Assembly (NCBI GenBank): GCA_965261735.1
Contig: OZ253470.1
Coordinates: 1,188,129-1,252,128, forward strand
Source: Alphaproteobacteria bacterium
Lineage (GTDB): Bacteria > Pseudomonadota > Alphaproteobacteria > SHVV01
Reading direction: 5' to 3'
Length of the DNA: 64,000 nucleotides
Both the position numbers and the translations under genes were made by a program. The notes under the pieces were generated by a model that worked only from the letters and a program-made list of their open reading frames with translations, was not told the origin of the DNA and searched no databases. Position 1 is the stretch's first letter; every line of letters starts with the position of its first letter. Positions 21,194-46,902 of the stretch are shown here, piece by piece.

Positions 21194-21721
21194 TCACAGC
21201 AGCTCGACGCATCGCGCCAACGCCCGCTCCACGGCGCGATGGAATGCCGCTTCCTCTGGATCCACGGTGGACCTGCCGCGGGACATCTCTTCAGGCTGAA
21301 TTGCGAAGGCCACACCGTCCGCGCTTCCCGTGATCTCGTGTCCATCGCCGGACGAATTGATGTGGGCCCTACCGAACTGCGACTTGCTGATGTTTTGATC
21401 CGCCAGGATCAGTTTGCACAGAACGATGAACTCATCGCCATCGCGGCGGCGATCCGCCACCTCGTAGCGCCACCCGTCGCCATAGCGGTCATCGAGGAAG
21501 CGCACCGTTTCCGACGATCCCACCGCGGCCGCCGAGTCGGGTTCGGTTGTCTGGGCCACGGGCCGTGCCGTATACGGCCCATCGCCCAGCGAATTGCCCT
21601 GACGCCCTGTGCCGGCAAGGCTTGATCCTCGGCCGGCATAGAGTTCCTCGAGCCGTTCGCGATTGCGGCCCAGCATTTCGTCAAATGCCGACGAGTAGCC
21701 GGGCCGGCGGTTGGAGACCAT
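21194..21721 (-). CDS. Standalone 175-aa protein homologous to the N-terminal extensions of both HyuB proteins in this window (GDGW / Rad52-like-signature domain). It is translationally coupled between the amidase and the peroxiredoxin.
   Basis: MVSNRRPGYSSAFDEMLGRNRERLEELYAG...RFLDDRYGDGWRYEVADRRRDGDEFIVLCKLILADQNISKSQFGRAHINSSGDG...AAFHRAVERALARCVELL. There is an 11-nt gap to the upstream gene and a 7-nt gap to the downstream gene. Confidence 0.7.
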   Translation of the reverse strand: MVSNRRPGYSSAFDEMLGRNRERLEELYAGRGSSLAGTGRQGNSLGDGPYTARPVAQTTEPDSAAAVGSSETVRFLDDRYGDGWRYEVADRRRDGDEFIVLCKLILADQNISKSQFGRAHINSSGDGHEITGSADGVAFAIQPEEMSRGRSTVDPEEAAFHRAVERALARCVELL

Positions 21722-21732
21722 ATGTTCTTGCC

Positions 21733-22443
21733 TCAGGTTTGGGCGCTGGGCTCGCCGCTCCACCAACGTTGGAAATCGTGCCGGGCCGTGGCCGCATAGC
21801 CGCTCGTGCCGGCCGCCCTCAGGTGCGCCATCACCTCCTCGCTTGAGACAACGTCGCCGTACTTGGCGTCGATGTCGAACAGGTTGGCCTCGTGCGGCTC
21901 CTCGGCCCGATCGCCGACGCCATCGCGCACCACGATCGTGTGGTAGCCGCACTGCATCGAGTCGATCGCCGACGCACGGATGCAGCCACTTGTCGTGCAC
22001 CCGGTCATAACGATGGTATCGACACCGCGCGACTTCAGGTAGGCATCCACATCGGTGCCAAAAAAGGCGCTGGCGAACTTCTTTTCCACCACATACTCGC
22101 CGTTGTCGGGGGCGATGCGCTCGTCCACCTCGACCATCGGGGAGCCCCTGCGTAGGATGGCCAGCGCAGGCACTTTCTTGATGAACATACCCGCGTCCCG
22201 AAAGTGCGCCTCATAGGCGATCGTGGTGTACACGATAGGCAGACCGCCGCGCCGGAACGCGGCCAATAGCTCGTTCGTGACCGCCAACTGATTGGAGAAA
22301 TCACCACCCAAGGGCGTCGTCGGATCGGTGAACCCCCTGATGAAATCGACGATCAGAAGGGCGGGCTTGGTACCATACCCGGCGCGGCCGGCGAAGCCTT
22401 TGTGCCGGTACTCCTCAAACGTCTGCTCTTGCCAGTCGTTCAT
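21733..22443 (-). CDS. Isochorismatase-family cysteine hydrolase, N-carbamoylsarcosine amidase-like (paralog 1).
   Basis: ALLIVDFIRGF...VDTIVMTGCTTSGCIRASAIDSM has the D-K-C triad context of CSHase/isochorismatase hydrolases. About 45% identical to paralog 2 at 45691..46377. Confidence 0.8.
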   Translation of the reverse strand: MNDWQEQTFEEYRHKGFAGRAGYGTKPALLIVDFIRGFTDPTTPLGGDFSNQLAVTNELLAAFRRGGLPIVYTTIAYEAHFRDAGMFIKKVPALAILRRGSPMVEVDERIAPDNGEYVVEKKFASAFFGTDVDAYLKSRGVDTIVMTGCTTSGCIRASAIDSMQCGYHTIVVRDGVGDRAEEPHEANLFDIDAKYGDVVSSEEVMAHLRAAGTSGYAATARHDFQRWWSGEPSAQT

Positions 22444-22722
22444 TTTGCACCTCCGCAAGAGACCTGAGCCCGCGACCGCCAGCCCGGCCATCGCAGCGTC
22501 GCTCGGCCTCGCTGCCGCCTCGATTTAACACCTCTTGAGGACTTCGATCAACGCGAGCAGAACCGCGGCGAACTGGCTTGATCTCCGCCGGTTAGCCCAT
22601 TATCAACAAAAGGGCAAGGGAGCCCTTCGATTCTGTGGACATCCGGGCCGCGCGATCGGCGGGAGAGACGATCGCCGGAGTGAGTGTCTCAAGATCAACG
22701 CCAATTCGTGGGAGAGCGACCG

Positions 22723-23796
22723 ATGAGCGATGATTCCACCCCCGATCCCGCCCTAGATCCCGACCGGCAGCGGCCTCGCGCGGAGGTGCTAGCGGCAGGT
22801 GGGCCGCGCTACAGCCCGCGGCCACTGCTCACTCCCTCATCCCACAATTCACTGACCGATGCGCGGCGACTTAGGGGATCCGGCACGGAAGGCCGCAAGG
22901 ACATCCTGTGTGCCTTCGGCGTCGACGTAGACGCCGTCGCCGGGTGGCTCGGCTCCTATGGCGGGGAGAACTCGCCGTGCGACATCTCGCGCGGACTGTT
23001 CGCGGGCGAGGTGGGCGTTCCGCGGCTGGTTAAGCTGTTCGACCAGCTCGGCATCAAAACCACGTGGTTTATCCCGGGCCACTCGATCGAGACCTTTCCG
23101 CAACAAACCAAGCTGGTGGTCGATGCGGGTCACGAAATCGGCATACACGGCTACTCCCACGAAAACCCGATCGCCATGACGCCGGACCAGGAGGAGGCGG
23201 TGCTGGATAAATGCATCGACCTCATCCGCGGCGTCTCCGGGCGCAGCCCTACCGGTTACGTCGCACCCTGGTGGGAGTTCAGTCCGGTCAGCAACGAATT
23301 GCTGTTGAAAAAAGCGATCAAGTACGACCACAGCCTCATGAACGACGACTTTCACCCGTTCTACGTTCGGGTCGGCGACAGCTGGACTCCAATCGACTAC
23401 GCCAAGCATCCGCGCGAGTGGATGAAGCCATTGGTACGCGGCGAGGAGACCGATCTGATCGACATCCCGGCGAGCTGGTACCTCGACGACCTGCCGCCAA
23501 TGATGTTCATCAAGAGCGCCCCCAACAGCTTCGGCTTTGTCAATCCGCGCGACATCGAGCAGCTTTGGCGCGACCAGTTCGACTGGGTGTATCGTGAGAA
23601 CGACTACGCCGTGTTCACCATGACCATCCACCCCGACGTTTCGGGACGGCCGCAGGTGCTGCTCATGCTCGAGCGGCTCTACAATCACTTCATCAGCCAC
23701 CCCGGCGTGCGCTTCTGCACCTTCGACGAAATCGCTGACGACTTCAAACGGCGCTCCCCACGCGATACCGGGGCGGGCGCAAAGGCCGCCGAGTAG
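22723..23796 (+). CDS. Polysaccharide deacetylase (NodB/CE4-fold) family protein, PuuE-allantoinase-like cyclic amidohydrolase.
   Basis: NodB-homology motifs ...[12 protein letters not shown].., [11 protein letters not shown] and ...WW.. are present. Length and motif pattern resemble metal-independent PuuE-type allantoinases. A GGGAGAG RBS precedes the ATG at 22723, and the ORF-track start at 22684 is also possible. Confidence 0.6.
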
Positions 23797-23826
23797 CGGC
23801 GCGCCAAAACAGGAGGCGAGACGGAA

Positions 23827-24156
23827 ATGTGCAGCTTGTGCGGGGTGCTCGCAGGCCGGGGGCATTGGACGGAGTCTTCGAGCCATCCTGAGGCGTTCGC
23901 GGACGGCGCGCCAGCGACCCGGCGGGCGGAGCGCCAACGGCGCGCGCGCCTCGCCAGCACGATTCTCAAGTTTTACGGGCTGACGCTCCGAGATTGGGAG
24001 GGCACGTCCTATATATTGCAGGGCGGCACCGGCCGGACCCTTTTGATCGAGAATCTGACTGACCTGTGGGCCGCCGCCGACCGTATGAGCGGAAGGACCT
24101 GCGACCCGCTGGACGCCTCCCTACTGGCCGCGCTAACCGGGGCGGAACATCCATGA
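23827..24156 (+). CDS. Hypothetical 109-aa protein, translationally coupled upstream of the COG0523 GTPase.
   Basis: Strong RBS AGGAGG 11 nt upstream. Stop is 13 nt before the GTPase start. No recognisable domain. N-terminus MCSLCGVLAG. Confidence 0.45.
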   Translation: MCSLCGVLAGRGHWTESSSHPEAFADGAPATRRAERQRRARLASTILKFYGLTLRDWEGTSYILQGGTGRTLLIENLTDLWAAADRMSGRTCDPLDASLLAALTGAEHP

Positions 24157-24169
24157 CTGGCGCTCACCG

Positions 24170-25264
24170 ATGACGGACTACGCTTCCCTCCTGCCGATCA
24201 ATGTCATAACCGGGTTTCTCGGCAGCGGCAAAACCACCCTGCTGCGGGATTTGTTGCGATCGCCGCACCTACGCGACACCGCGGTGCTGATCAACGAGTT
24301 CGGCGAAGTAGGACTGGATCATCATCTGTTCCGCCACGTCTCCGAGAGCACGGTGCTGCTCGAGAACGGCTGCCTCTGTTGCGCCGTACGCGGCGATCTC
24401 AAGTTGGCCCTGCACGATCTGCTGTCGAAGCGCGACAAAGGAGAGCTGCCCCCCTTCCGGCGCGTCGCGATTGAGACCTCCGGCCTCGCCGACCCCGTGC
24501 CCATCGCCTACACAATCCTGGCCGAACCGGTCCTGCAACACCACTTCCGCCTCGGCAACGTGGTGACCACGATTGACGCGGTGAACGGGGCGGGTCAACT
24601 GGATCAGTTCGAGGAATCGGTGAAACAGGTCTCCGTCGCCGATCGCTTGGTGTTGACCAAGACGGACCTCTGCGGTGCGCCGGAGGTTGCGGTGCTTCGC
24701 GATATTTTGAGCCGCCTCAACAAGTCGGCGCCGGTGTTCGAGTCGGTCGCGGAGGGGATCGATCCCGAGCATCTGCTGGCGCAGGATATTTACAATCCGG
24801 GCGACTACCGGGAAGCAAGCCGATGGCTCGTCGACCGTAGCGAACACCCGGTAAGTGCGGAATGCGAGATTCTCCACCACCACCACGACCCGGGCATCTT
24901 CTCCTTTTGCCTGTGTTTCGATCAGCCCATGGATTGGACTGCCTTTGGCGTCTGGATGACGATGCTCCTCAACCGCCATGGCGAAAAAGTGCTCCGCATC
25001 AAGGGCATGCTCAACGTTGCCGGCCAAGCCGCTCCCGTGCTTATCAACGGGGTGCAGCACATCGTGCATCCACCAGCCCATCTCGACGACTGGCCCGACG
25101 CGGATCATCGCTCGCGCATCGTGTTCATCGTTCGTGACATGTCGCGCCGGCGCATCGAGGCTTCTCTGGCGGCCTTCAACGACCTCGCCAATCCGCGCGC
25201 CACCATGGACGCCGAAAACCGACCCGGGCCGACCACGGCCCTCGACTCTGCCAGCGTCGGTTAA
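24170..25264 (+). CDS. COG0523 / CobW-family G3E GTPase, a putative metal-insertion chaperone.
   Basis: Walker A GFLGSGKTTLL, the metal-binding GCLCCAVR (CxCC) motif, and the His-rich stretch ILHHHHDPG. Confidence 0.85.
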   Translation: MTDYASLLPINVITGFLGSGKTTLLRDLLRSPHLRDTAVLINEFGEVGLDHHLFRHVSESTVLLENGCLCCAVRGDLKLALHDLLSKRDKGELPPFRRVAIETSGLADPVPIAYTILAEPVLQHHFRLGNVVTTIDAVNGAGQLDQFEESVKQVSVADRLVLTKTDLCGAPEVAVLRDILSRLNKSAPVFESVAEGIDPEHLLAQDIYNPGDYREASRWLVDRSEHPVSAECEILHHHHDPGIFSFCLCFDQPMDWTAFGVWMTMLLNRHGEKVLRIKGMLNVAGQAAPVLINGVQHIVHPPAHLDDWPDADHRSRIVFIVRDMSRRRIEASLAAFNDLANPRATMDAENRPGPTTALDSASVG

Positions 25265-25914
25265 GGGGCCGAGTCGGACGAAGACACCCGCGGTGGTGGC
25301 CGGCGCGGACGCCAGCCGATCCTGAAAGCGCGCACCGCGTGGTGGAGCAGGAAAAACGCTATCGCGAGAATCACCAGCAAGATGATGGCGAGGAGCTTGC
25401 CGCCAAACCCCGCATCGATGATCGGACCACGGCTCATCAAGTGCTCGCTCAGCATCTCGACGGCTTGCAGAGTGGCGCCGCCAAAAAAGATCAAGGCTAT
25501 GAGAATGGCTATCTGTAGGGTATCGAAGACGAGCCCTTCGACCTCAAGATCAGTGGCGGCCCGGAAGATGTTTCTGCGGAAGGATTGCCAATGGGAGACC
25601 GCGTAGCCGATCACCCCGACGAGCGACGCGAACCAGAATATGACGTTGGAAAAATGGATGCGCGGAATACTTTGGGTCAAGTAATCTTCGAACGGCCGAT
25701 AAAAATAGAGGAAGATCAACAGTATGACGAGACCAACCAGGATGATCCAAAACCTCGGCCGCTGCCAACTGGTGCTGTCCTGTGCCATGATGAGCGGGGC
25801 CGCTCCGTCCCGGGGGTTCCAGTAGCTGCTTATCGTCTCGGCGCACCTCGGGCAAGCCAAAAAACGGCTCTCGCCAACCTCGACCTCAATGCACTGCGGT
25901 GAATCCGTTCTCAC
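25261..25914 (-). CDS. 4-TM membrane protein of unknown function, paralog A. The likely start is the internal Met at 25788.
   Basis: ...LYFYRPFEDYL...IFWFASLVGVIGYAVSHWQSFR...FGGATLQAVEMLSEHLM...IDAGFGGKL... is about 40% identical to 39509..39976. Confidence 0.55.
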   Translation of the reverse strand: MRTDSPQCIEVEVGESRFLACPRCAETISSYWNPRDGAAPLIMAQDSTSWQRPRFWIILVGLVILLIFLYFYRPFEDYLTQSIPRIHFSNVIFWFASLVGVIGYAVSHWQSFRRNIFRAATDLEVEGLVFDTLQIAILIALIFFGGATLQAVEMLSEHLMSRGPIIDAGFGGKLLAIILLVILAIAFFLLHHAVRAFRIGWRPRRPPPRVSSSDSAP

Positions 25915-26133: not shown

Positions 26134-28197
26134 ATGAGCAGCCGCCTCGGCATTGATGTGGGTGGGACTTTCACCGATCTCTTGCTGTTCAACGAGAGTA
26201 GCGGCGAAATCCACCTGCTCAAGACGCCGTCCACGCCCGAAGACCAGTCGGTCGGCATTCTCAACGGCGTCGAGCGGCTGATCGCCCAATCGGGCATACC
26301 CGCGGCCGAGATTCAGACGGCACTCCACGGCACCACGGTATCGACAAACATCGTGCTCGAGGAAAAAGGCGCCAAAGTCGGCCTGCTGGTCACGGAAAAC
26401 TTCGAGCAGGTGCTGCATTTGGCGCGGTCGCAGACGCCGGGGCCGCTGGCCGGTTGGATCATCATGATCAAGCCGGATCCGCTCGCGGATCTGGAGTTGA
26501 CCCGTGGTGTCCCGGAACGCATCAACGCGCGCGGCGAAATCCTCAAGCCGCTCGATGAAGCCTACGTGCGCACCGCCATACCGGACCTCATAGAGGCAGG
26601 CGTGGAATCGATTACGGTATCATTACTCCATTCCTACGCCAACGCCGCGCACGAGGTACGGATCAAGGAGATCATCCAGGACCTGGGAATCGAGGTGCCG
26701 GTTTCGCTGTCCAGCGAAATTCTCCCGGAGTTTCGTGAATACGAGCGGACTCTGGTCACGGTGATGAACGCCTACGTGCGGCCCAGCATGCGCAGCTATC
26801 TGAGGAACTTCGAGGACAAGTTGCGCAGCATCCAGTTTTCGCCCCATGTGAACATCGTGCGCTCCGATGGCGGACTGATGAGCGTGGAGCGCGCCTCCGA
26901 GTCCCCCGTCTACACGATGTTGTCCGGGCCGGCGGGCGGGGTTTCGGGTGCCGCTTTTCTCGCCGCGCTGGCCGGGAGCCCCAATGCTCTCGGTTTCGAC
27001 ATGGGTGGCACCTCGACCGACGTTTCGCTGATCCAAGATGGCCAACCGATGATCTCGCGCCAGACCTCGCTCGGCTATTACCCACTGAAGGTGCCCTCCG
27101 TCGAGGTACACAGCGTCGGCGCAGGTGGCGGCTCCATCGCCCATGTGCCGATGACCGGCGCTCTGCGCGTCGGTCCCGAGAGCGCGGGCGCCGCGCCTGG
27201 CCCCGCCTGCTACGGTAGGGGCGGCGACCAGCCCACGGTGACGGACGCCAACGTGGTGCTCGGGCGCTTGCCGCCGAGCCTGCTCGGCGGCGACATGGCG
27301 CTGGACGTCAAGGCGGCCGAGGAAGCGGTGGCGAAGATCGGGCGCGCCCTTGGTCTCGACACCTACCAGGCGGCTCAGGGGATTCTCGATATCGTCAACG
27401 AGAACATGTTCGGGGCGCTGCGACTGGTATCGGTGCAGAAGGGTCTCGATCCGCGGGACTTCGCGCTCGTCGCCTTTGGCGGGGCGGGCCCCCTTCACGG
27501 CAATGCCATGGGCGCGCTCGCGCAGTGCTACCCGGTGATCATCCCCCCGACCCCTGGAGTGCTCTCGGCCCTAGGGTTTCTCTACTCGGACGTAAAGAAC
27601 GAGTTCGCCAAGACGTTTATCCGCAATCTCAACGAAGTGCATGCCGGCGATGTGACGGAAATCTTGACGCGGCTAGGCACTGAGGCGACAGCGTGGCTGC
27701 GCGAGGAAGGCATCGAGGAGCGAAGCCAGGAGCTGCGCTTCGAGGCCGACGTGCGGTATTTTCGCCAGGGCTACGAGATCTCCCTTACCGTGACCCCCAG
27801 CACGTTGGTCAATGGCGGAATCCAGGATATTGAGAATCGTTTCGGCGCCATCCACGAACGGCTGTATGGTTTCAAGTTGGATGCGCCGGTCGAGCTCGTG
27901 AACCTGCGCGCCGTCGGTACCGGCCGGGTGGTGAAGATCAAGTTCCCGAGCTTCGAGAAGCAAGGCAGCGATCCCTCCCCCGCCATGGTGGATCAACACC
28001 GGGTCTACTTCGACGGCAACTTTGTGTCGGCCAACGTTTACGATCGCAACCTGCTCGCCGCGGGCAACCGCATCTCGGGCCCAGCGGTGGTCACACAAAC
28101 GGATTCGACCACCCTCATCCACCCCGCGCACAGCGGAGAGGTGGACGCGTATCTGAACATCTTGATTTATCCGCAGGGCGCGAGTCCTTCGGCATGA
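26134..28197 (+). CDS. hyuA: Hydantoinase A / N-methylhydantoinase (ATP-hydrolysing) A subunit / oxoprolinase family, copy 1.
   Basis: 687 aa. N-terminal ASKHA fold GIDVGGTFTDLLLF, an AAGGRSGA-type motif region and a DMGGTSTD motif. RBS AAGGAAAGG. Confidence 0.9.
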   Translation: MSSRLGIDVGGTFTDLLLFNESSGEIHLLKTPSTPEDQSVGILNGVERLIAQSGIPAAEIQTALHGTTVSTNIVLEEKGAKVGLLVTENFEQVLHLARSQTPGPLAGWIIMIKPDPLADLELTRGVPERINARGEILKPLDEAYVRTAIPDLIEAGVESITVSLLHSYANAAHEVRIKEIIQDLGIEVPVSLSSEILPEFREYERTLVTVMNAYVRPSMRSYLRNFEDKLRSIQFSPHVNIVRSDGGLMSVERASESPVYTMLSGPAGGVSGAAFLAALAGSPNALGFDMGGTSTDVSLIQDGQPMISRQTSLGYYPLKVPSVEVHSVGAGGGSIAHVPMTGALRVGPESAGAAPGPACYGRGGDQPTVTDANVVLGRLPPSLLGGDMALDVKAAEEAVAKIGRALGLDTYQAAQGILDIVNENMFGALRLVSVQKGLDPRDFALVAFGGAGPLHGNAMGALAQCYPVIIPPTPGVLSALGFLYSDVKNEFAKTFIRNLNEVHAGDVTEILTRLGTEATAWLREEGIEERSQELRFEADVRYFRQGYEISLTVTPSTLVNGGIQDIENRFGAIHERLYGFKLDAPVELVNLRAVGTGRVVKIKFPSFEKQGSDPSPAMVDQHRVYFDGNFVSANVYDRNLLAAGNRISGPAVVTQTDSTTLIHPAHSGEVDAYLNILIYPQGASPSA

Positions 28198-33409: not shown

Positions 33410-33429
33410 GCCGGCGCTCGGGACAGGGC

Positions 33430-35353: not shown

Positions 35354-36343
35354 TCAAAGCTCCTTGCGAATGTCGACCAGCCTCAGGATGATGACCACGC
35401 CGATCATCATGGCGAGCATCAGCATGAGGGCGTTTACCGCGGCGAAGGGATAGTTCGCTATACCGTAATAGTTCAGGATCACCGTCCCCGCTGTGCTGGT
35501 TTTTCCGCCGTACACCACAACCGCGGTCGCGAACTCCCCCATGATCAGCACGAAGATGAAGATCATTCCGATGGCCACCCCCGGGAGTGAGAGCGGGCCG
35601 ATGATCTCGCGGAAAATCTGGAACGGTTTGGCGCCCATATCGCGCGCCGCCTCGAGGATCGTCTTTTCGATTTTCGCCAGCGAGAAAAAGATGGGTCCGA
35701 CGCACAGCACAACGTAGAGCTGCACCAACGCCATCGTGTAACTGAACTGCGAATACAGCAGGAACTCGACGGGCTTGTCGATGATGCCCATGTCGAGCAA
35801 GGCCCTGTTGAGCAGGCCGCGCCGCCCCAGCATGGGCAGCCAGGCCACGGCGCGGATCAGGTAGCTGGTCCAGAACGGCACCATGCAAAACAGAAACAGC
35901 GTGATCTGCCACTTGAAGCTCTTCACCTGCATGGCGAGGAAATAGGCGATCGGGTATCCAAACAGCAGACAGAAGAGCATCACGACAATGGTGAATTTGA
36001 AAGTCGTCCAGAGAGTCCGGACAAAGATGCCTGGGGTCAGAAACCCAACGGAGGAGGGATCGAGGAATCCCTCGACGGTGAAGTAGTCCGCGTAGTGGCG
36101 GAGGGTCAGATCGGGCTCCATGCCGTGGCCCGTGGACTTCCAAAAGCTGAAAACAACGATGCTGGCCAAGGGCACAACCAGGAACAGCAGCAGCCAGACG
36201 ACGGCGGGCGTAATCAGCCAGCCCACGGGGAACCCAGCCTGTCGCCAGGTTTTCGCGGCCCGGGCCTCTGTTTCCGGCGCCGTCGGCTGGCTGCCGATCA
36301 GCCCTGAGTGGTGCGCATGCTCGGCTTGCTGCATACCAGTCAA
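35354..36343 (-). CDS. ABC transporter permease (PotB/PotH-like).
   Basis: 329 aa polytopic membrane protein, 1 bp from the downstream permease gene. Confidence 0.8.
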   Translation of the reverse strand: MTGMQQAEHAHHSGLIGSQPTAPETEARAAKTWRQAGFPVGWLITPAVVWLLLFLVVPLASIVVFSFWKSTGHGMEPDLTLRHYADYFTVEGFLDPSSVGFLTPGIFVRTLWTTFKFTIVVMLFCLLFGYPIAYFLAMQVKSFKWQITLFLFCMVPFWTSYLIRAVAWLPMLGRRGLLNRALLDMGIIDKPVEFLLYSQFSYTMALVQLYVVLCVGPIFFSLAKIEKTILEAARDMGAKPFQIFREIIGPLSLPGVAIGMIFIFVLIMGEFATAVVVYGGKTSTAGTVILNYYGIANYPFAAVNALMLMLAMMIGVVIILRLVDIRKEL

Positions 36344-37817: not shown

Positions 37818-38032
37818 CGATTCTCTCCTCCCGTTGACAACGTGGGTTCCTGTAGAGACGCCCGTTGAAGCTTGAATAAATCCTAGGGAAGCCGCCTCCA
37901 AGAGTCCATCCAAACATCATCGCCGGCGCCAGCAGCGCAGCCGTCAAAGCCTTTGCCTCGCCGCGATAGCCGCGCGCATACTGGCCGCCGGTCGAGCGCT
38001 AGATCGAGGCCGAGACTGCCCGGGAGGATGTC

Positions 38033-39508: not shown

Positions 39509-39976
39509 TCAGGGTTGCTGCGTGGCGGGACGGATGATCTTAAGCAGCCAAAAAATGATGCAAAACACGCCGGTCAGGATCACCAGCGCGGCGACGGCGC
39601 CAAGGCGCTCGCCGAACCCCGCATCGAGGGCGTACTCCTGCCGCAGAAGATGGACGCAGAGGATTTGAACCGCCTGCAGTGTCGCGCCGCCACTCAGTAG
39701 GATCGCGACGAAGGTGGAGCCCCGTAGCGAACTCAGCACCATGGATTCGATGCTGCGCTGCTGCACGATGTGGACGCGGTAGGCGTGCCAGTGATAGGTA
39801 CAAAACCCGATGATGCCGATGATCAACGCGACCCAGAAGATCGCATTCTCGAACCTTATTCCATAGACGACCAGCTTGAACAAGTCCTCAAAGGGCTCGT
39901 AAAAATAGAGAAACATCAAGACAACAATGAAAAGCAGGAAGCCCACGAGCGTCCAAAACCATTGCCACCCAGTCAT
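39509..39976 (-). CDS. 4-TM membrane protein of unknown function, paralog B.
   Basis: MTGWQWFWTLVGFLLFIVVLMFLYFYEPFEDLF...LLSGGATLQAVQILCVHLL...LDAGFGERL. Convergent with hydA at a 10-nt gap. Confidence 0.55.
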   Translation of the reverse strand: MTGWQWFWTLVGFLLFIVVLMFLYFYEPFEDLFKLVVYGIRFENAIFWVALIIGIIGFCTYHWHAYRVHIVQQRSIESMVLSSLRGSTFVAILLSGGATLQAVQILCVHLLRQEYALDAGFGERLGAVAALVILTGVFCIIFWLLKIIRPATQQP

Positions 39977-40125: not shown

Positions 40126-41187
40126 TCACGCGGCCGTTTCCGCAGCCGCGACAATAAGAAGGACACCGTAGAGAACCAGAAATACGGCGTCCTTAACCGC
40201 CGGAACGAGCTGTTTTTCCGCCCGATTGACGGCGATTAGGGCGATGGCCTCAAGAACAAAAAAGACTCCCGACAAGAAGAAGAACGGCCATATGCTGCGC
40301 CACCAGGACAGCTCTTCCGCTTGGGGCACCTCTTGTACCCATCTCGATATCAGCAATAAGAGGGGCAACACCATCAAGTAGCCGTACGCCACAAGGAAGC
40401 GAAACCGCGTGAGCTTCCGGTCCAGTATCCAGAACGTAAAGAAGAAAAGAACGACGTGGAGAAAATCCCAAAAGAGCGACGCATATTGATCGCTCTCGGT
40501 GACCTGCAACAGGTTGAGGAACCCAAGTAGAAGCAGAAAGACGATGCCGTCGCAGAATAGCCATTCGCGCACCGTCTCGCCGGCGCTCTTCATGCTCCAG
40601 GCGCGGGTCGCCTTGTCGAACAGCAGCACCACGCCGACCGCCACGCTGGCCGGATAGATTAGATGGAGCATCAGCGCGTACTGCTGCGCCCTCGGGACGT
40701 AGATCCAGTTGAGCAGCAGGAAGGCGAGCCCCAGGGCCAGTAGTCCCAAGAGGCGCGCTCCGGCAGGAGTCTCGAATTCCGACGGCGTGGCCGGGGTTTC
40801 GCCGTCTGCCGCCGCTACCGCTCGCGGCTGCCGAGGCAGGCGGGCGAAAAGAAAGACAACGAAGGCCGCGAGCCCGACCGCGCCGACGACCGACATTGCA
40901 ACGATGAAGACGACCGATCGCCGGCCCGTCCGCCAATCCGTTGCCGCCAGCTGCTCTTGCACGCCCGGAAGGAACTGCCAGAGCGCCAGCAGGACGACGA
41001 CCAGGAGCAGGATCGCCGCCAATAGGAGCTCGTACCATTGTGGCGTGTATCCGCCGACCGGTCTGCCGGCCTCCGGCTGCTGTGATCGGCCTAGGTAACG
41101 AGTAACGAGGAAAACGAGGAAGGCCGCGACGGCAACCGCCGCGATGGCGATCATGACCTCGAGGAAGGCAACCGATCTGCTATCCAC
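40126..41187 (-). CDS. Hypothetical polytopic membrane protein of about 10 TM, a possible permease, downstream of hyuB2.
   Basis: 353 aa, highly hydrophobic, no recognisable family motif. Confidence 0.45.
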   Translation of the reverse strand: MDSRSVAFLEVMIAIAAVAVAAFLVFLVTRYLGRSQQPEAGRPVGGYTPQWYELLLAAILLLVVVLLALWQFLPGVQEQLAATDWRTGRRSVVFIVAMSVVGAVGLAAFVVFLFARLPRQPRAVAAADGETPATPSEFETPAGARLLGLLALGLAFLLLNWIYVPRAQQYALMLHLIYPASVAVGVVLLFDKATRAWSMKSAGETVREWLFCDGIVFLLLLGFLNLLQVTESDQYASLFWDFLHVVLFFFTFWILDRKLTRFRFLVAYGYLMVLPLLLLISRWVQEVPQAEELSWWRSIWPFFFLSGVFFVLEAIALIAVNRAEKQLVPAVKDAVFLVLYGVLLIVAAAETAA

Positions 41188-41304: not shown

Positions 41305-43545
41305 CTAGCGAGACCGCAATCGCTGGGTCTCCTCCGAATTCAGGGTGTCAGCGACCGGATCGATGGCGACTCCGTAAACATCTCGGGCGATCTCTATTGT
41401 TATGTAGTCGTCCAGATAATCGCCCAGCACCATCGCCGGATCACGCGCTTTAGGATCGCCGTAGCCACCGCCGGAGGGCGCCGTGATTTGGATCAGATCG
41501 CCAGCTTCCATCTTATATCCGGTGACCTTGGAGGGCCAGTTCTGCTCTTCTGCCGTGCCCGGGTTCTTAACGAGCTTGCCCGTGTGGCCTTCCGTCCCAC
41601 CGAAGACGCCGTGCGGCTTTTCCAGGTGGCGGTCCGCCTCACACGAGATGTAACCCGGTGCGAGGAACCGGTTCTCGCGCACGATGCCGATGCCGCCGCG
41701 CCACTGGCCGGCGGCCGGAGGATCGGGCCGCAACTCGTAGCGCTCGTTGCGGATCGGATAGTGCATGTCGAGCTCTTCGACCGGATTGTTGCGCGTGTTG
41801 GCCATAAGGTTGTCGACGCTGTCCATGCCGTCCTTGCCGTGTCGGCCGCCGTAACTCCCCTCGTCGACCTCCAGATAAACCCAGTATTGCTGTTTCTCGG
41901 GAATGAACCCGCTGTAGGAGATGAAATAGAGCGACGCGGAATTGCCCCCGGTCGCCCTTTCCGGGATGACCGGCGACAGCGCGTGAATGACGCAGTCCAG
42001 CACCCTCTGAATCTGGGCGAAGCGTGAAAAGCAGGCGCGCGGAAAGTTTGGATTGAAGATCGTGCCCTTGGGGGCAATGACGTTGACCGGGCGGAAGATG
42101 CCCTCGTTTTGCGGGATGAACTCCTCGAAGGTCACTTCGTCCAGCATTAGGGTACGAACGATGTAGTTGCAAGCGACCACGAGACTGCCCTCGAAGGGCA
42201 CGTTGAAGCCGGTCTCCACCTCGGCCGCCGACCCGGTGAGGTCGATGGTGATGTCGCTGCCCTTGACACGCACGGTGACGTTGACCTTCAGCGGCGTATC
42301 GCGGTTTTTCCCGTCGTCATCCAGCCAGCCCTCGGAGTGGTACTCACCGTCGGGAACCTTTTCGATCTCGGCGCGCAGCATTCTTTCCGAGTAGTCCATC
42401 CAATAGTTTGCCGTGCCCATGACGGTGTCCGCGCCGTATTTCCCGACGAGCCGCAGAAAACGCTCGCGTCCGATTTCCACCGCCGCGATCATCGCCTCGA
42501 TATCCGAGGTATCCATGTCGGGGGTGCGCACGTTGTCCTTGAGGAGTTGCCAGACCTCCTCGTTACGGGTTCCGCGGTCGTACAACTTGATGGCGTTGAA
42601 GAGCTTGGACTCGGCGTAGACGTCGACCACGTCGACATTGATGCCGGGGGCGGCGCCGCCCATGTCGAGCAGGTGCGCGGTGCAGGCGGAGAACCCCAAT
42701 AGCCCGCCGTCATGAACGATGGGCACGATCACGGCCACGTCGGGCGTATGCGAGGCGCCGTAATAGGGGTGGTTGTGGATGATGACGTCGCCCTCGTGGA
42801 TGTTGCCGGCCAACCGTTTCAGGATGCCTCTGATGTACCAGGGAAGAGAACCGATGTGCATCGGCGTGCTCTCGCTCTCGCAGAGCTCATTCCCTTCCAT
42901 GTCGAAAATGCCGCAACCCAGGTCCTCCGACTCGCGAATGATGCTCGAGTAGGACATTCGGTAAAGGACGTGGGCCATCTCCTTGGCGATGGCGTTGAAG
43001 GCGCCGCCCACCACGCGAAGCGTGACTGGGTCGAGGTCCTGATATGAAAAGTCGGTAATCTTCGATGGCGCCGGACGGCCAGTCAGCGCCACCGCGGTCG
43101 AAACTGGCTCGGAGTCGGCCTGTCGCAACGCTGGCAGCTGGGGCGCGGGCGCCGGCCGCAGAGCCTCCGCCGCCGGTTCCGTTGCCTCGGGCGGGGAGGC
43201 TACCGGAGCGTCCGTTGTGGCCGGTAGCCCCGGTCGCGGCCGGACCGTGTCCGGCGGCGCGGCGCCCCGCCCGGTATCGACGAGCGTCATTGCGCACTGG
43301 AGGAGGCTGTCGTCGGAGGCGACCTCGAGCTGCTCGCCCAGCGACAGACCACCGCGCCCGTTGGCCGTTCCCGATTTTCGCACCTGGGCGCCGTCCGCCC
43401 GCAGCTCGCCTTCCACTTCCACGCCGTCGCCACGCAGGTGGTGGTTGATAATGTCGAAACTCCAACCGTCGCCGTAGGCGTCGCGGAGTGCCTTGACGAC
43501 GGCGGGGACGGTTGTTGGTCCCGTCGTACTTGGCGCGTCATTCAT
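41305..43545 (-). CDS. hyuB: Hydantoinase B / oxoprolinase-family subunit, copy 2, with a roughly 175-aa N-terminal extension: a GDGW domain and a Pro/Ala-rich linker.
   Basis: MNDAPSTTGPTTVPAVVKALRDAYGDGWSFDIINHHLRGDGVEVEGELRADG...SLLQCAMTL, then a P/A/T-rich linker, then HyuB homology from ...LDPVTLRVVGGAFNAIAKEMAHVLYRMSYSSIIRESEDLG. Confidence 0.85.
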   Translation of the reverse strand: MNDAPSTTGPTTVPAVVKALRDAYGDGWSFDIINHHLRGDGVEVEGELRADGAQVRKSGTANGRGGLSLGEQLEVASDDSLLQCAMTLVDTGRGAAPPDTVRPRPGLPATTDAPVASPPEATEPAAEALRPAPAPQLPALRQADSEPVSTAVALTGRPAPSKITDFSYQDLDPVTLRVVGGAFNAIAKEMAHVLYRMSYSSIIRESEDLGCGIFDMEGNELCESESTPMHIGSLPWYIRGILKRLAGNIHEGDVIIHNHPYYGASHTPDVAVIVPIVHDGGLLGFSACTAHLLDMGGAAPGINVDVVDVYAESKLFNAIKLYDRGTRNEEVWQLLKDNVRTPDMDTSDIEAMIAAVEIGRERFLRLVGKYGADTVMGTANYWMDYSERMLRAEIEKVPDGEYHSEGWLDDDGKNRDTPLKVNVTVRVKGSDITIDLTGSAAEVETGFNVPFEGSLVVACNYIVRTLMLDEVTFEEFIPQNEGIFRPVNVIAPKGTIFNPNFPRACFSRFAQIQRVLDCVIHALSPVIPERATGGNSASLYFISYSGFIPEKQQYWVYLEVDEGSYGGRHGKDGMDSVDNLMANTRNNPVEELDMHYPIRNERYELRPDPPAAGQWRGGIGIVRENRFLAPGYISCEADRHLEKPHGVFGGTEGHTGKLVKNPGTAEEQNWPSKVTGYKMEAGDLIQITAPSGGGYGDPKARDPAMVLGDYLDDYITIEIARDVYGVAIDPVADTLNSEETQRLRSR

Positions 43546-43557
43546 CGCCGGGCCCCG

Positions 43558-45636
43558 TTAGTGCAGTTTGATGAGAAGGTTGCCGTGAGAGTCTACCTCC
43601 GCAAGCAGCTCCGGCAAAATGAGGGTCGTGGTGTCCGCTTGCTCGACGATGGCGGGCCCCTGGATCACATTGCCCCTCTTCAGACGCCGCCGGTCGTAGA
43701 TAGGTGTGGAGACACTCGCGGGGCGCCCGCCGTCATCAAAAACGACGCTGCGACGCGCCGTCAACGCATCGGCGTCCGGTTCGCGCGAGCCCGCCGGTAG
43801 CTCCGCGGTACGAAGCTCCGGGATCTTGCCGAGGCCGATCACCCGGATGTTCACCAGCTCGACGTCCTTGTCCTCGAAATGCCGGCCATATTCACGTTCA
43901 TGCGTGCGGTGGAACTCCGCAATCAACTGTTCGATAAAACCAGCGTCCACGTTACCGGCGGGGGCGTCGACCCGCAGCTCGTATCCCTGCCCGTGATAGC
44001 GGCACTCCGCGACCCTCAGGAACATCCGGTCCTGTCGTCCGGTGTTGTCGCTGTCCAGCTGCCTCGCGGCCAGCTGCTCGAGCTGCGCGTAGTCCTCGGC
44101 GATTGGGCCGAGGTCCGGTTTGCTCAGGAGCTGCAGCTGGGTGCGGCTGAAATCGTAGGACAGATCGGTGGCCAGCAGGCCGAGGGCGGACGTAAGGCCC
44201 GGACTAGGTGGCACGATCACCAAGGGAATCGCTAGTTCCAACGCCACCTCGCAGGCCTGTAGGGGCCCGGCCCCGCCAAACGCCACCAGGGCGAACTCGC
44301 GCGGGTCGTACCCCTTGCGCACGCTGTTCATCTCGATCGACTGGATCATGCCGTGGTTGAGGATCTTGATCGCCCCGAGCGCCGCCTCCTCCACCGACAT
44401 GGCGAGTTGGGCGCACAGGTGTTTCTCGATACCCTGGCGCGACAGGTCGAACCGGAGCCCCATCTTGCCGCCGAGGAAGTTGTCCGGATTGAGCCTCCCC
44501 AGTACGGCGTTACAATCGGTCGACGTGGGTAGCTCACCCCCTCTGTCATAACAGCAGGGACCGGGTAGCGCCCCGGCGCTTCTCGGCCCGACTCGAAACA
44601 CGCCGCCCTTGTCGACATAGGCGATCGAGCCGCCTCCGGCGCCGATGGTGTCGATATCCACCATGGGGACCATGGCCTGGTAGTCACCAATCTTCGTGTC
44701 GAGCAGATGCTTCATGCTCATCCGGCCGTCGGGCGCCACGCCGATGTCGGCCGAGGTCCCCCCCACGTCCAGGGTGATCGCATTCTTGTACCCGGCCAGA
44801 CCGCTGGCCCAGATGCCTCCGATCAACCCGGCGACGGGTCCCGACATCAGCAGCGTCACGGGCCGGCGAGTCGCGCCCTGAGCAGTGGCAACCCCCCCGT
44901 TGGCCTGCATCAGATGCAGGTCCGAACGGAACTGCTCCTGCTTCATGGCGCGGTTCAAATTGTCCACGTAGGTCGCGGTCTTCGGCCCGACGTAGGCATT
45001 GAGACAGGTCGTGGTGAAGCGCTCATATTCCCTGTACTGGGGTATCACCTCGTGACTGAGCGACAGAAACACCTCGGGCCATTCCTCGCGGATGATCTCT
45101 CCGGCCCGCTTTTCGTGGGCCGGATTGAGGAAGGAGAACATGAAGCAGACCGCGACCGCCTCGACGCCCGCGCGCTTGAGCTTACGGATGGCCTCGCGCA
45201 CGCCCTCCTCGTCAAGGGGAACGAGCACCTCGCCATCCGGAGCGATGATGCGCTCCTTGACGGTCAGGCGATAACGTCGCCTGACCAACGGATATTTCTG
45301 CCAGGGCAGATCCTGCTGGATGCTGAAGTTGTAAGGGCGCTTGTGGCGGGCGATGTGGAGGATGTCCCGGTAACCCTCGGTGGTGATGAGCCCCGCCTTC
45401 GCTCCGTCGTGTTGCAGGATGATGTTGGTCGCGATGGTGGTGCCGTGGAAGAACTGCTCCACGTCGGAGGGAGCGACGCCGGCGCTCTCGCAGATCTCTA
45501 GTGCCCCGCCAATGGTACCGATCGAGGGGTCATCCGGGGTGGTGGGAACCTTGTTGAGGTCTATCGTCCCCTTCTCGTCGTTGACGAGTACGAGGTCGGT
45601 GAACGTTCCCCCGACATCCACGCCCATCCGAATCAA
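43558..45636 (-). CDS. hyuA: Hydantoinase A / N-methylhydantoinase A-family subunit, copy 2.
   Basis: 692 aa. MGVDVGGTFTDLVLVNDEKG...DVGGTSADIG. About 50% identical to copy 1. Confidence 0.9.
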   Translation of the reverse strand: MIRMGVDVGGTFTDLVLVNDEKGTIDLNKVPTTPDDPSIGTIGGALEICESAGVAPSDVEQFFHGTTIATNIILQHDGAKAGLITTEGYRDILHIARHKRPYNFSIQQDLPWQKYPLVRRRYRLTVKERIIAPDGEVLVPLDEEGVREAIRKLKRAGVEAVAVCFMFSFLNPAHEKRAGEIIREEWPEVFLSLSHEVIPQYREYERFTTTCLNAYVGPKTATYVDNLNRAMKQEQFRSDLHLMQANGGVATAQGATRRPVTLLMSGPVAGLIGGIWASGLAGYKNAITLDVGGTSADIGVAPDGRMSMKHLLDTKIGDYQAMVPMVDIDTIGAGGGSIAYVDKGGVFRVGPRSAGALPGPCCYDRGGELPTSTDCNAVLGRLNPDNFLGGKMGLRFDLSRQGIEKHLCAQLAMSVEEAALGAIKILNHGMIQSIEMNSVRKGYDPREFALVAFGGAGPLQACEVALELAIPLVIVPPSPGLTSALGLLATDLSYDFSRTQLQLLSKPDLGPIAEDYAQLEQLAARQLDSDNTGRQDRMFLRVAECRYHGQGYELRVDAPAGNVDAGFIEQLIAEFHRTHEREYGRHFEDKDVELVNIRVIGLGKIPELRTAELPAGSREPDADALTARRSVVFDDGGRPASVSTPIYDRRRLKRGNVIQGPAIVEQADTTTLILPELLAEVDSHGNLLIKLH

Positions 45637-45690
45637 GTCAAGCCCCCGTTCGCCTGTAACGGTGCATGCGCAGTCGGCGCCGTCGCGGAT

Positions 45691-46377
45691 TCAAGCACCG
45701 GTTTCCACCTTGGCCTGACCGAGGTAGTCGAGCACCCGCTCGAGGGGCTCCACGTCGCCGAACTTCGCGTCAATGTCGAAGAGGTTCCAGTCGACGACGC
45801 CGGCCACCCGGTCGCCCACCGCCTCGCGGACGACAATCGGCCGGAACCCCTCGGCGATCGCATCTTCGGTCGTGTGGCGGACGCACGCGCTGACGGTCGT
45901 ACCGGTGATGATGACCGTATCCACCCCGGCCGCCCTCAGGAAGCCGGCGAGATAGGTGCCGTGAAAGGCGCTGGCCCGCTTCTTGACGATAACATGCTCG
46001 CCGGCCTGCGGCGCGATGCGCTCGTCGATGGCAACGCCCTCGGTGCCGAGCTTCAAGACGGCCAGCGGAATCTTGAGATGCCACAGGCCCATGTCGGTAT
46101 TCGGCCCTTCGGTGACGGCATAGGCGGTGGTCGTGTAGACGATGGGAATGCGCTTGGCGCGCGCCGCCGCCAGCAGCTTCTGGACGCTCGGAATGATCAC
46201 GTCCATGCCGTCGCAACTGAACGCGTTGCCGGGGCGCGTCCAGGCGTTCGCGAGATCGATATTGATGAGCGCGGGCCATTCGCCAAAGCCAATTCGGCGC
46301 TGGAATCCCCGCTTCTTGTAGAGGTCGGAATCGGCGGAGAAGACCCGGCTCAGGGCCTTGCTAAGCTCTTCGTCCAT
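45691..46377 (-). CDS. Isochorismatase-family cysteine hydrolase, N-carbamoylsarcosine amidase-like (paralog 2).
   Basis: ALINIDLANAW...VDTVIITGTTVSACVRHTTEDA with the catalytic Cys context. It heads the operon with hyuA2 and hyuB2. Confidence 0.8.
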   Translation of the reverse strand: MDEELSKALSRVFSADSDLYKKRGFQRRIGFGEWPALINIDLANAWTRPGNAFSCDGMDVIIPSVQKLLAAARAKRIPIVYTTTAYAVTEGPNTDMGLWHLKIPLAVLKLGTEGVAIDERIAPQAGEHVIVKKRASAFHGTYLAGFLRAAGVDTVIITGTTVSACVRHTTEDAIAEGFRPIVVREAVGDRVAGVVDWNLFDIDAKFGDVEPLERVLDYLGQAKVETGA

Positions 46378-46487
46378 AGTGAAACGAAGCTACCACCGAC
46401 CAATCGGGGTGTCGATTTGGATTTGCGAGCCGTGGTACGGGGAGTTGTCGGGGCGGCCCGGTGGCCGCAACCGCGTTCGGCCTTGCC

Positions 46488-46902
46488 CTATTCCGGCGGG
46501 GTGACCCCCGTCTGTTCGGTGATGATCTTGTAGTGCTCGATCCGCCGATGGACGGCGAAATTGAACATGGCGTCCTGTGCGCGCACGCAGAGGTCCAGAT
46601 CGCAGCGGGCGGCGATCAGCTCGTCCCCTTTGGTGGCGGCCTGAGCGACGATCTCGCCCGACGGCGCGGCGATGATGGAGCCACCGATCAGGTCGCAGCC
46701 CTTCCTCGATGCCCGCCTTGGCCACGCCCACCACCCAGGCACCGTTCTGATAGGTGCCCGCCTGCATGCACAGATGATTGTGGAAGGCCGTGAGGTCGCT
46801 ATAGATCGGCTCCCACGGCATGTTCGCTGGCGTGTTGTAGCCGAGAAGCACGACTTCCGCCCCCTTGAGCGCCAGCACCCGATATGTCTCCGGCCAGCGC
46901 CG
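46488..46902 (-). pseudogene. N-carbamoyl-D-amino-acid hydrolase (D-carbamoylase, nitrilase superfamily), C-terminal roughly 128 codons only. The 5' part is deleted next to truncated IS1595 copy 2, and there is an internal frameshift.
   Basis: ...RRWPETYRVLALKGAEVVLLGYNTPANMPWEPIYSDLTAFHNHLCMQAGTYQNGAWVVGVAKAGIEEG matches DCase residues about 176-245 (RRWPEAWRVMGLRGAEIICGGYNTPTHN...SMQAGSYQNGAW). In a second frame ...DLIGGSIIAAPSGEIVAQAATKGDELIAARCDLDLCVRAQDAMFNFAVHRRIEHYKIITE matches the DCase C-terminus. The catalytic Cys is lost. Confidence 0.8.

Follow-up and report, generated by a model that had tools for sequence, protein, structure and literature searches.

The window analysed in this study is a stretch of 64,000 nt of contig OZ253470.1 (assembly GCA_965261735.1, positions 1,188,129 to 1,252,128 of the forward strand) from an alphaproteobacterium of the GTDB lineage SHVV01. 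It contains an island of about 26 kb, representing a cluster type of roughly 20 genes, in which two HyuA/HyuB hydantoinase pairs are found together with two isochorismatase-family amidohydrolases (iso1 and iso2), a D-hydantoinase, a COG0523 GTPase accompanied by a partner protein of 109 aa, a flotillin-like protein, and an importer of the ATP-binding cassette (ABC) type. This inventory had been drawn up in an earlier reading of the DNA (the original prediction), which proposed a coherent island for the hydrolysis of cyclic amides and ureides; all these genes were recovered in place, and the hydrolytic theme holds.

Genes in the window were called from the listing of open reading frames (ORFs) combined with a GC3 filter, and families were assigned through Pfam and NCBIfam scans. 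Between 20.7 and 47.4 kb, a single clear gene was obtained for each stretch, with intergenic gaps in the island of at most 220 nt. The left minus-strand operon comprises prx, coding for a peroxiredoxin, the gene of a small protein named GW, and iso1. The right one, also on the minus strand, comprises in transcription order a CN-hydrolase remnant, iso2, hyuA2, hyuB2 and the membrane protein genes u353 and u155, while the D-hydantoinase gene is divergent from the permease and binding-protein genes of the importer.

The two copies of the A and B subunits had been taken to be about 50% identical. In an all-against-all BLASTP comparison, we found instead 40% identity for A1/A2 (E=6e-166) and 31% for B1/B2 (E=3e-91). 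For iso1 and iso2 the identity is 44% (E=2e-50), and the proposed kinship of two membrane proteins with four transmembrane segments (4-TM) was borne out as well (39-40%, E=6e-31). Judged from these alignments, the paralogy within the island is far beyond chance and is older than previously supposed.

Both HyuA/HyuB pairs belong to the superfamily of this name, as indicated by Pfam E-values from 1e-11 to 1e-157 and by the adjacency of the A and B genes. Specifically, hyuA1 (26134-28197, plus strand) codes for the ATP-binding subunit of a type-1 hydantoinase/lactamase, with the Hydant_A_N, Hydantoinase_A and Hydant_A_C domains, and it is followed by hyuB1 (28206-30497, plus strand; 763 aa; Hydantoinase_B, E=1e-149). 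The junction between the two reads TGA-GGTGAACC-ATG; the ribosome-binding site GAGGTG already proposed is present and overlaps the stop codon, while the gap is 8 nt and not 9 nt. The second pair lies on the minus strand, with hyuA2 at 43558-45636 and hyuB2 (746 aa) at 41305-43545, separated by 12 nt.

A close, full-length similarity to N-methylhydantoinase (EC 3.5.2.14) is displayed by pair 2 and not by pair 1. HyuA2 scores 825 bits against residues 1-687 of the solved enzyme 7hk5, and the core of HyuB2 aligns end-to-end with residues 700-1264 (719 bits, compared to 47 bits for the acetone carboxylase alpha subunit), both halves of the known enzyme being thereby matched. N-methylhydantoinase (7hk5/9h03) is a fused A-B chain of 1288 aa, whereas the window subunits are separate, and 7hk5 is devoid of the extra Rad52-like domain and linker, about 170 aa, carried by HyuB2. 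Pair 1 is more distant: HyuA1 scores 460 bits with 7hk5, 354 with the caprolactamase subunit CapA and 263 with the acetone carboxylase beta subunit, and HyuB1 scores 263 bits with 7hk5, 211 with caprolactamase and 83 with the acetone carboxylase alpha subunit. The NCBIfam equivalogs for caprolactamase are not reached (CapA 524-570 bits and CapB 240-258 bits, cut-off 1000), nor are those for the acetophenone carboxylase Apc (109-351 bits, cut-offs 1250-1500). Caprolactamase CapAB (6yra) has its two-subunit architecture and its Pfam domains in common with the window pairs, but it is partnered by an aminotransferase, and the window HyuAB by an amidohydrolase.

The amidohydrolase encoded by iso2 (45691-46377, minus strand) resembles N-carbamoylsarcosine amidohydrolase (CSHase), with 262 bits and 55% identity to the Arthrobacter enzyme 1NBA; the second match, 26st, follows at 141 bits and 44% identity. 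The Asp-Lys-Cys triad is intact in the alignment with 1NBA, and the segments INIDLANAW, VKKRASAF and SACVRHT align with corresponding 1NBA segments, which presumably hold the catalytic residues. The iso1 gene (21733-22491, minus strand) codes for an isochorismatase-family cysteine amidohydrolase of the CSHase/NicF clade (Isochorismatase, E=1.6e-38), in which a D, a K and a C correspond to the catalytic triad. Its top solved match is 26st, a chain named N-carbamoylsarcosine amidohydrolase (235 bits), followed by the isochorismatase-family proteins 3ot4 (159 bits) and 4l07 (153 bits), which we take to be maleamate amidohydrolases (NicF). By fold, triad and name of the closest chain, both iso1 and iso2 show the sequence features of N-carbamoylsarcosine amidohydrolases. 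Azospirillum plasmid proteins matched under the same name lie in nicotinate-type and plain ABC/racemase clusters, and hence they were discarded as not belonging to this system.

The close match of HyuAB2 and iso2 to the solved N-methylhydantoinase and N-carbamoylsarcosine amidohydrolase makes a predicted conversion of N-methylhydantoin to sarcosine well supported for this set, with N-methylhydantoin as the best candidate substrate. The pairing of HyuAB with an isochorismatase-family amidase, on which the original prediction had built this route, agrees with characterised enzymes, and the gene order iso-hyuA-hyuB suggests a single operon. The window set differs from the known route in having no creatinine deaminase and in being embedded in a larger cluster, of which it is an optional part.

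The D-hydantoinase/dihydropyrimidinase gene (38033-39499, plus strand) scores 599.8 bits with TIGR02033 (cut-off 393.25), and its product contains sequences read as the metal and carboxylated-lysine motifs, namely HTH (58-60), SYKLFMAY, CMHAEN, YIVHMS and STDHCP. The D-carbamoylase-type gene of the CN-hydrolase family (46390-46898, minus strand) is indeed a remnant, as had been recognised: only positions 151-213 of the CN_hydrolase profile are matched, the C-terminal third is kept and the 5' end is truncated at a junction with an IS1595 insertion sequence (IS). In addition, three-frame translation revealed a frameshift that had been overlooked. The likeness to the classical hydantoinase process therefore consists of an intact D-hydantoinase and of a D-carbamoylase-type gene that was once in the cluster; the carbamoylase is now truncated and frameshifted, and the window holds no hydantoin racemase.

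Between iso1 and hyuA1, three plus-strand genes form a further group. The first (22684-23796; Polysacc_deac_1) codes for a CE4-fold hydrolase which had been labelled as PuuE-like. It scores 505 bits over 290 residues with Helicobacter pylori HP0310 (3qbu/4ly4), compared to 40 bits with PuuE (3cl6), and 61.8 bits with the PuuE equivalog TIGR03212 (cut-off 424.6); therefore, it is not PuuE-like and was assigned to the HP0310/cyclic-imidase family. With respect to HP0310 (HpPgdA, 3qbu), the window protein has an additional N-terminal extension of about 70 aa. The second gene (23827-24156) codes for the 109-aa protein, without a family match, and the third (24170-25264; cobW 1.4e-43, CobW_C 8e-24) for the COG0523 GTPase, a G3E-type putative metallochaperone with a GFLGSGKT Walker A motif, a CLCC sequence (CxCC metal motif), ETSG and HHHH, which stays below the equivalog cut-offs of CobW, ZigA and YjiA.

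HP0310 has been described as structurally atypical and probably a small-molecule enzyme (PMC3084791), and a kinship of its family with cyclic imidases, among them the Pseudomonas putida YZ-26 imidase and Aspergillus nidulans HxnM, has been reported (PMC9304392). One anchor gene in the gene-context comparison of HP0310 was HP0312 (PMC3084791), a COG0523 member (PMC2770081), and thus the association of CE4 hydrolase, 109-aa protein and COG0523 GTPase probably extends to Helicobacter. The window CE4 gene differs in being divergently paired with an isochorismatase-family amidase, in place of an amidase-signature enzyme.

The remaining genes of the island code for membrane and transport functions. 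Downstream of hyuB1, a 938-aa flotillin-like SPFH protein is encoded (30593-33409, plus strand; Band_7, 3e-16), with an N-terminal transmembrane helix (residues 1-30) and a long coiled coil, as expected for the flotillin/SPFH group; its score with the FloT equivalog is 18 bits against a required 700, and therefore we refer to it as a flotillin-like protein and not as FloT. The importer consists of an ATPase (33370-34512, plus strand; ABC_tran 1.4e-32, TOBE_2), two permeases (34525-35352 and 35354-36343, minus strand; BPD_transp_1) and a PotD/PotF-like periplasmic solute-binding protein (36513-37913, minus strand; SBP_bac_8 6e-14, TAT signal domain). The 4-TM protein at 25261-25914 (minus strand), with four hydrophobic segments, is the paralogue of u155 (39509-39976, minus strand). 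The u353 gene (40126-41187, minus strand) codes for a membrane protein with about 10 transmembrane segments of an undescribed family, without a Pfam or NCBIfam match, whose relatives fall into 470 clusters, every one of them named hypothetical.

To place the island in a wider context, related contigs (designated by L numbers) were fetched from searches with the GW protein, HyuB1 and u353, and compiled in a tblastn synteny table. The block flotillin-hyuB1-hyuA1-4TM-COG0523-109aa-CE4, divergent from iso1-GW, was found in 20 fetched loci, often partial (among L005-L009 and L012-L028). They come from metagenome-assembled genomes (MAGs) of Alphaproteobacteria not yet in culture, with the addition of two contigs of gammaproteobacterial type (L021, L024) which are without the CE4 module. 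In L017, L019, L020, L025 and L026, the block runs straight on as iso1-GW-hyuA2-hyuB2-u353-u155, followed by the two permease genes and the binding-protein gene divergent from the D-hydantoinase gene, with protein identities of 45-85%; both hyu sets, importer and D-hydantoinase are contiguous there. Single associations recur as well. The flotillin gene adjoins hyuB1 in 13 of the 13 loci extending past hyuB1, and also in L031; the gene at the position of 25261-25914 is conserved in every related locus with sequence covering it; u155 comes after u353 in the related loci having u353 (L017-L026, L030, L031); and the permease orthologues are 70-82% identical and kept in order in L017-L031.

The window order is shared by L030, a circular contig of 7.3 Mb, and by L031: iso, u353 and u155, then the D-hydantoinase gene divergent from those of the binding protein and the permeases, then the ATPase and the flotillin, with hyuB1 following in L031 (the sequence fetched for L030 ends inside the flotillin gene). 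The L030 iso protein is 83% identical to iso2. In neither contig is hyuAB2 present between iso and u353, and therefore HyuAB2 is best described as an optional, N-methylhydantoinase-like insert, while the core of the supercluster is made up of HyuAB1 and an iso enzyme together with the importer, the flotillin, the D-hydantoinase and the membrane proteins.

The CE4, 109-aa and COG0523 genes constitute a module of their own. The 109-aa gene always lies between the CE4 and COG0523 genes (L001, L002 and L005-L028, apart from L021 and L024, where the module is absent), and its product is 41-62% identical to the window protein in MAG loci and 38-40% in two plasmids. In these plasmids, of Paraburkholderia and Shinella, the three genes are likewise together, adjoining an amidase, short-chain dehydrogenases/reductases and binding proteins. 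The coupling of the COG0523 GTPase and the 109-aa protein beside a metal-dependent hydrolase, which the original prediction had pointed out, is thus a matter of conserved synteny.

In conclusion, the region corresponds to one conserved supercluster, and not to two loci. It unites the two hyu sets with importer, D-hydantoinase, membrane proteins and flotillin, occurs in uncultured bacteria of soil and sea, and is contiguous or kept in the same order in many alphaproteobacterial MAGs. The examination of related genomes that had been suggested for this region therefore showed a conserved linkage, and spoke against its division into two loci arisen by ancient paralogy or by two acquisitions.

Further genes accompany the cluster in single genomes. 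In L008, a marine Tara alphaproteobacterial contig, a GTP-cyclohydrolase-II-like/DUF1688/UPRTase trio lies between the two hyu sets (7036-10156); we take it to represent URC-type uracil catabolism genes, with a URC1-like GTP-cyclohydrolase-II. Family III CoA-transferase and HMGL-like lyase genes recur beside the iso-GW side in L013 (10638-12734) and L027 (10467-11228), and CoA_transf_3 is likewise found near the cluster in L007 and L008. The same CoA-transferase and lyase pair stands directly after iso-HyuA-HyuB on plasmid pGYMC5201 of Geobacillus sp. Y412MC52 (L032, 11010-13123), whose HyuB core is 62% identical to HyuB1. A gene for an FMO-like flavin monooxygenase is located inside the L030 supercluster, between the permeases and the ABC ATPase (16643-18109), and an FMO-like gene in L031 (4231-5910) lies about 3.4 kb upstream of the cluster iso gene, outside the conserved block.

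A second feature of the island, which the original prediction had missed together with the IS1595 bracketing described below, is a domain that both HyuB subunits carry as a fusion. The length of characterised HyuB-type subunits is 564-594 aa (PMC8453981, Table 1), and the two window proteins have about 170 extra residues whose domain also makes up the free GW protein (21194-21721, minus strand; 175 aa), composed of an N-terminal helical tag, a disordered linker and a Rad52-like core. In HyuB1, the tag (residues 1-40) is followed by the GW core (residues ~59-138), a Pro/Ala linker and the Hydantoinase_B core (residues 180-694). In HyuB2, the GW core (residues ~12-95, encoded by 43261-43512), which aligns to HyuB1 and to the GW family, precedes a linker and the Hydantoinase_B core. 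Two other reading frames at the free GW gene were rejected: the ORF at 21409-21684 (91 aa), rich in Arg and without homologues, overlaps with the true GW frame, and the long ORF at 21194-22000, from which the start coordinate of the original prediction derives, is an artefact, its last 175 codons alone being the GW gene.

In the AlphaFold2 model of the GW protein, the core is predicted with confidence (pLDDT above 90) and has the topology alpha-beta-beta-beta-(beta-beta)-alpha. The Pfam profile Rad52_Rad22 matches 5 of 25 GW family members, one of them above the curated cut-off, namely residues 1-150 of HyuB1 with 21.1 bits (cut-off 20.3). When the GW profile (alignment A2) was compared through hhalign with a single RAD52 sequence, the expected segments were aligned, although the E-value of 0.08 is not significant. 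From model and profile scores, we consider the GW domain as Rad52-like, homology being probable and not proven. Unlike the Rad52/Mgm101 single-strand annealing proteins, the window domain is fused to, or stands beside, a metabolic enzyme, and no recombination genes are part of its context.

The position of the domain is not fixed. It is N-terminal on the window HyuB2 and C-terminal, in the same ORF and after a Pro/Ala-rich linker, on the HyuB2 orthologues of L019 (13032-15194), L020, L025 and L026; its occurrence at either end argues for a tethered, self-contained module. A search of 1.84 billion proteins yielded 353 representatives of the free GW family at E<=1e-3. The long form of HyuB1 is abundant and highly conserved, with full-length relatives in more than 120 clusters at 72-79% identity from soil and marine metagenomes, annotated solely as "N-methylhydantoinase B". 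When HyuB1 was searched against 72,556 plasmids, no match covered at least 80% of the protein, and therefore none of these plasmids carries the GW-extended form; at the DNA level, 25 kb of the island compared by megablast with the same plasmids gave short gene-level matches only.

The tag preceding the GW domain was studied with a hidden Markov model (HMM) built from the first ~36-42 residues of HyuB1-type and GW-type proteins and from the N-terminus of the window peroxiredoxin, and searched in six-frame translations. The tag is a predicted helix of about 36 aa with the pattern S-x-S-L/F-D-D/E-L/M-L-x-x-N-K/R-x-Q-F-D. Only HyuB1 and GW are matched in every locus, with the addition of the peroxiredoxin in the window lineage; the window positions concerned are 20698-21186 (minus strand), 21194-21721 (minus strand) and 28206-28325 (plus strand), and nothing further was matched, either in the window itself or among 30 related loci. 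The tagged peroxiredoxin, prx (20698-21186, minus strand; Redoxin E=1.8e-24, tag HMM E=8e-15), is of the Prx5 type and is truncated by an IS at its 3' end, matching only positions 3-106 of the 148 of the Redoxin profile; the full gene, of 202 aa, is present in the near-identical contig L004.

In L005 (10559-11005), L007 (10506-10643 and downstream) and L009 (10617-10754 and downstream), the peroxiredoxin after GW is of the PrxQ/BCP type, and the window protein at the same cluster position is of the Prx5 type with a Cys. An in-frame TGA occupies the position of the peroxidatic Cys in these PrxQ/BCP genes (YPKADTPG-TGA-T/N) and the frame continues, which makes them candidate selenocysteine peroxiredoxins. 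Right after the peroxiredoxin in L005/L006 (11146-12069), in this one genome context only, a Fpg/Nei-type DNA glycosylase gene is found, a curious neighbour for hydantoin-type enzymes and a Rad52-like domain in what is a chromosomal copy of the cluster.

The borders of the window island are marked by IS1595-family elements. The left one (19652-20721 and beyond, plus strand; DDE_Tnp_IS1595 and Zn_ribbon_IS1595, Pfam), with its transposase ORF at 19694-20806, recurs inverted at 52799-53868 with 100% identity over an arm of 1070 nt, the full copy spanning 52761-53868. The right border is a 5' fragment (46899-47399, minus strand), a 501-nt inverted repeat of 19653-20153 with 100% identity. Identical IS copies thus stand at both ends, as in a composite transposon, the right copy being merely a 5' fragment. 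Both end genes are truncated by IS1595, prx at its 3' end and the carbamoylase gene at its 5' end, the latter being fused to the right fragment. The GC content is 0.60-0.64 inside the island and up to 48 kb, and 0.66-0.73 past 48 kb. The near-identical contigs L003 and L004 have differing IS junctions, and therefore repeated insertions and deletions are favoured over one transposition. The term island is apt; nevertheless, its boundaries are deletion and insertion scars and not the natural ends of operons.

On the right, a high-GC segment with dapD and a pyrimidine 5'-nucleotidase gene (47400-49435) lies between 5' and 3' fragments of IS1595 (46899-49698), and the full copy at 52761-53868 is 3 kb beyond it; the IS1595 pieces around this segment are scars of IS-mediated deletion or rearrangement. 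On the left, positions 1-19650 of the window are an IS-rich graveyard, with a fragment of a type IV secretion system coupling protein (2815-4161), a DDE_Tnp_1_4 (DDE group 1) transposase fragment (4587-5132), katG (6288-8513), a gene for a DUF7713 protein (13015-13629), two nearly identical IS630-type copies (8537-9659 and 13636-14758) and an IS256/Mutator element repeated with 100% identity (10086-11493 and 15816-17206).

By comparing the gene content of the island with its conservation, we favour, with a probability of about 0.6, the explanation that the region is one functional unit, namely a rearranged, IS1595-bracketed copy of a conserved supercluster through which small cyclic ureides and imides would be taken up and mineralised by hydrolysis. 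The PotD-like binding-protein ABC importer would bring the substrate into the cell. The HyuAB enzymes, homologous to N-methylhydantoinase, would open rings at the cost of ATP, and the metal-dependent D-hydantoinase and the HP0310-type, imidase-like CE4 hydrolase may do so without ATP, the latter being metallated by the 109-aa protein and the COG0523 GTPase. Homology suggests that iso1 and iso2, the latter with an intact triad, would then cleave the N-carbamoyl or half-amide acid, releasing NH3 (plus CO2). Most likely, the HyuAB2-iso2 set would lead from N-methylhydantoin, derived from creatinine, to sarcosine, and the core HyuAB1 set would act on a related ring. The GW domain and the tag might assemble or localise the enzymes, plausibly at a platform of flotillin and membrane proteins.

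Several observations weigh against this explanation. Among the scanned window ORFs, no creatininase, creatinine/cytosine deaminase or sarcosine oxidase was matched by Pfam or NCBIfam models. This agrees with the original prediction, which had listed the first two as lacking along with any regulator; no regulator was matched among these ORFs either, and all Rfam families stay below their gathering scores in the window, so that there is no riboswitch regulator. The substrate assignments are predictions, the scaffolding and localising role of GW domain, tag and flotillin is drawn from gene linkage, and the Rad52 link consists of a borderline sequence score and one AlphaFold2 model, with the hhalign E-value at only 0.08. 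HP0310 was found inactive on allantoin and on acetylated amines (PMC3084791), and another study attributes esterase/deacetylase activity to it (PMC3688963). Finally, HyuAB1 is only 40%/31% identical to HyuAB2, and the plasmid-borne homologues closest to its core have unrelated gene neighbourhoods, next to CoA-transferase and HMG-CoA-lyase genes on the Geobacillus plasmid and, on a Sphingomonas plasmid, with a succinate-semialdehyde dehydrogenase gene after HyuAB.

Alternatively, the whole island could serve creatinine and N-methylhydantoin, with both HyuAB as isofunctional N-methylhydantoinases, both iso proteins as N-carbamoylsarcosine amidohydrolases, and creatinine deaminase and sarcosine oxidation encoded elsewhere. 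In favour of such an arrangement, each of the six proteins has as its best solved relative either N-methylhydantoinase or a chain named N-carbamoylsarcosine amidohydrolase. Nevertheless, it leaves the D-hydantoinase, the imidase-like hydrolase and the carbamoylase remnant without a pathway role, and genomes with HyuAB1 only retain the rest of the cluster. Moreover, HyuB1 scores 263 bits with N-methylhydantoinase where HyuB2 scores 719, and iso1 is nearly as close to 3ot4 and 4l07, the presumed maleamate amidohydrolases. We regard this scheme as possible, but rather unlikely.

A cyclic-imide or lactam pathway for the core set 1 is, in our view, just as unlikely. Here, the CE4 imidase or HyuAB1 would produce a half-amide, iso1 would act as half-amidase, and the resulting dicarboxylate would enter central metabolism. 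The 150-160 bits of iso1 with 3ot4 and 4l07, if these are maleamate amidohydrolases (NicF) as we assume, fit the second step, although a chain named N-carbamoylsarcosine amidohydrolase remains the top match of iso1. The relatedness of the HP0310 family to cyclic imidases (PMC9304392) and the pairing of the plasmid CE4-109aa-COG0523 module with an amidase also agree with it; yet the imidase module is absent in the gammaproteobacterial L021 and L024. As to the fate of the product, the CoA-transferase and HMGL-like lyase flanking the L013 and L027 clusters and recurring on the Geobacillus plasmid, together with the succinate-semialdehyde dehydrogenase context, are hints of an imide or lactam to dicarboxylate conversion by set-1-like enzymes, but the window has neither CoA-transferase nor lyase.

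Salvage or degradation of pyrimidines (dihydrouracil/dihydrothymine), with the D-hydantoinase as dihydropyrimidinase and an iso enzyme or the lost carbamoylase as ureidopropionase, appears improbable to us. The 600 bits with TIGR02033, the CN-hydrolase remnant upstream of iso2 and the trio of presumed URC-type uracil catabolism genes between the L008 hyu sets all point in this direction, and the D-hydantoinase, the remnant and this trio suggest that cyclic ureides from nucleobases are among the compounds handled. On the other hand, no dihydropyrimidine dehydrogenase is present, the two ATP-dependent HyuAB enzymes are left unexplained, and the carbamoylase, being a pseudogene, is dispensable here.

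That the HyuAB pairs are acetone/acetophenone-type carboxylases or 5-oxoprolinases, and the island not about ureides, is very unlikely: beyond a common superfamily and weak matches, the subunits score 47-119 bits (B) and about 260-330 bits (A) with carboxylases versus 263-825 bits with N-methylhydantoinase, genes for a gamma or an epsilon subunit are lacking, and the constant partner is an amidohydrolase. With carboxylases scoring 5-10 times lower and no gamma subunit, the outcomes named beforehand as fatal to the ureide interpretation did not materialise. Equally remote is the accidental juxtaposition of unrelated loci by IS1595 activity, which the IS-rich surroundings and the IS junctions at both ends might suggest; it is contradicted by synteny, since at least 8 independent contigs keep these genes linked with no IS elements involved, at 45-85% protein identity.

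The single functional unit for cyclic ureides and imides therefore remains our preferred explanation, and the original observation proved largely right, its interpretation partly so. As a more speculative extension, which we consider doubtful, the supercluster might form a membrane-associated ring-opening metabolon, in which GW domains co-assemble as a ring scaffold and the tag docks the enzymes on a flotillin/4-TM/10-TM platform by the importer; or else, the GW domain might bind nucleic acid and act as the missing regulator. If the metabolon were real, a DNA-recombination fold would have been recruited for metabolic scaffolding. A Rad52 fold on a catabolic enzyme, at either end, would be an unusual domain recruitment.

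The enzymes belong to known families, and thus the system as such is not new in kind. As far as we found, its architecture is undescribed, with a Rad52-like domain on HyuB, a shared tag, the linkage to flotillin and membrane proteins and the CE4-109aa-COG0523 module; our literature search returned no paper joining hydantoinase with Rad52, flotillin or COG0523. The synteny of the cluster provides a first genomic rationale for what the HP0310 family truly does, unrelated to peptidoglycan, as well as for one subfamily of COG0523 with its 109-aa partner. ATP-dependent hydantoinases and lactamases are poorly understood, although they are used in creatinine diagnostics and in lactam biocatalysis, and the constant company of HyuB1, consisting of flotillin, membrane proteins, a CSHase-like amidase and an importer, gives a concrete starting point for experiments on a nitrogen-scavenging pathway that is widespread in uncultured Alphaproteobacteria.

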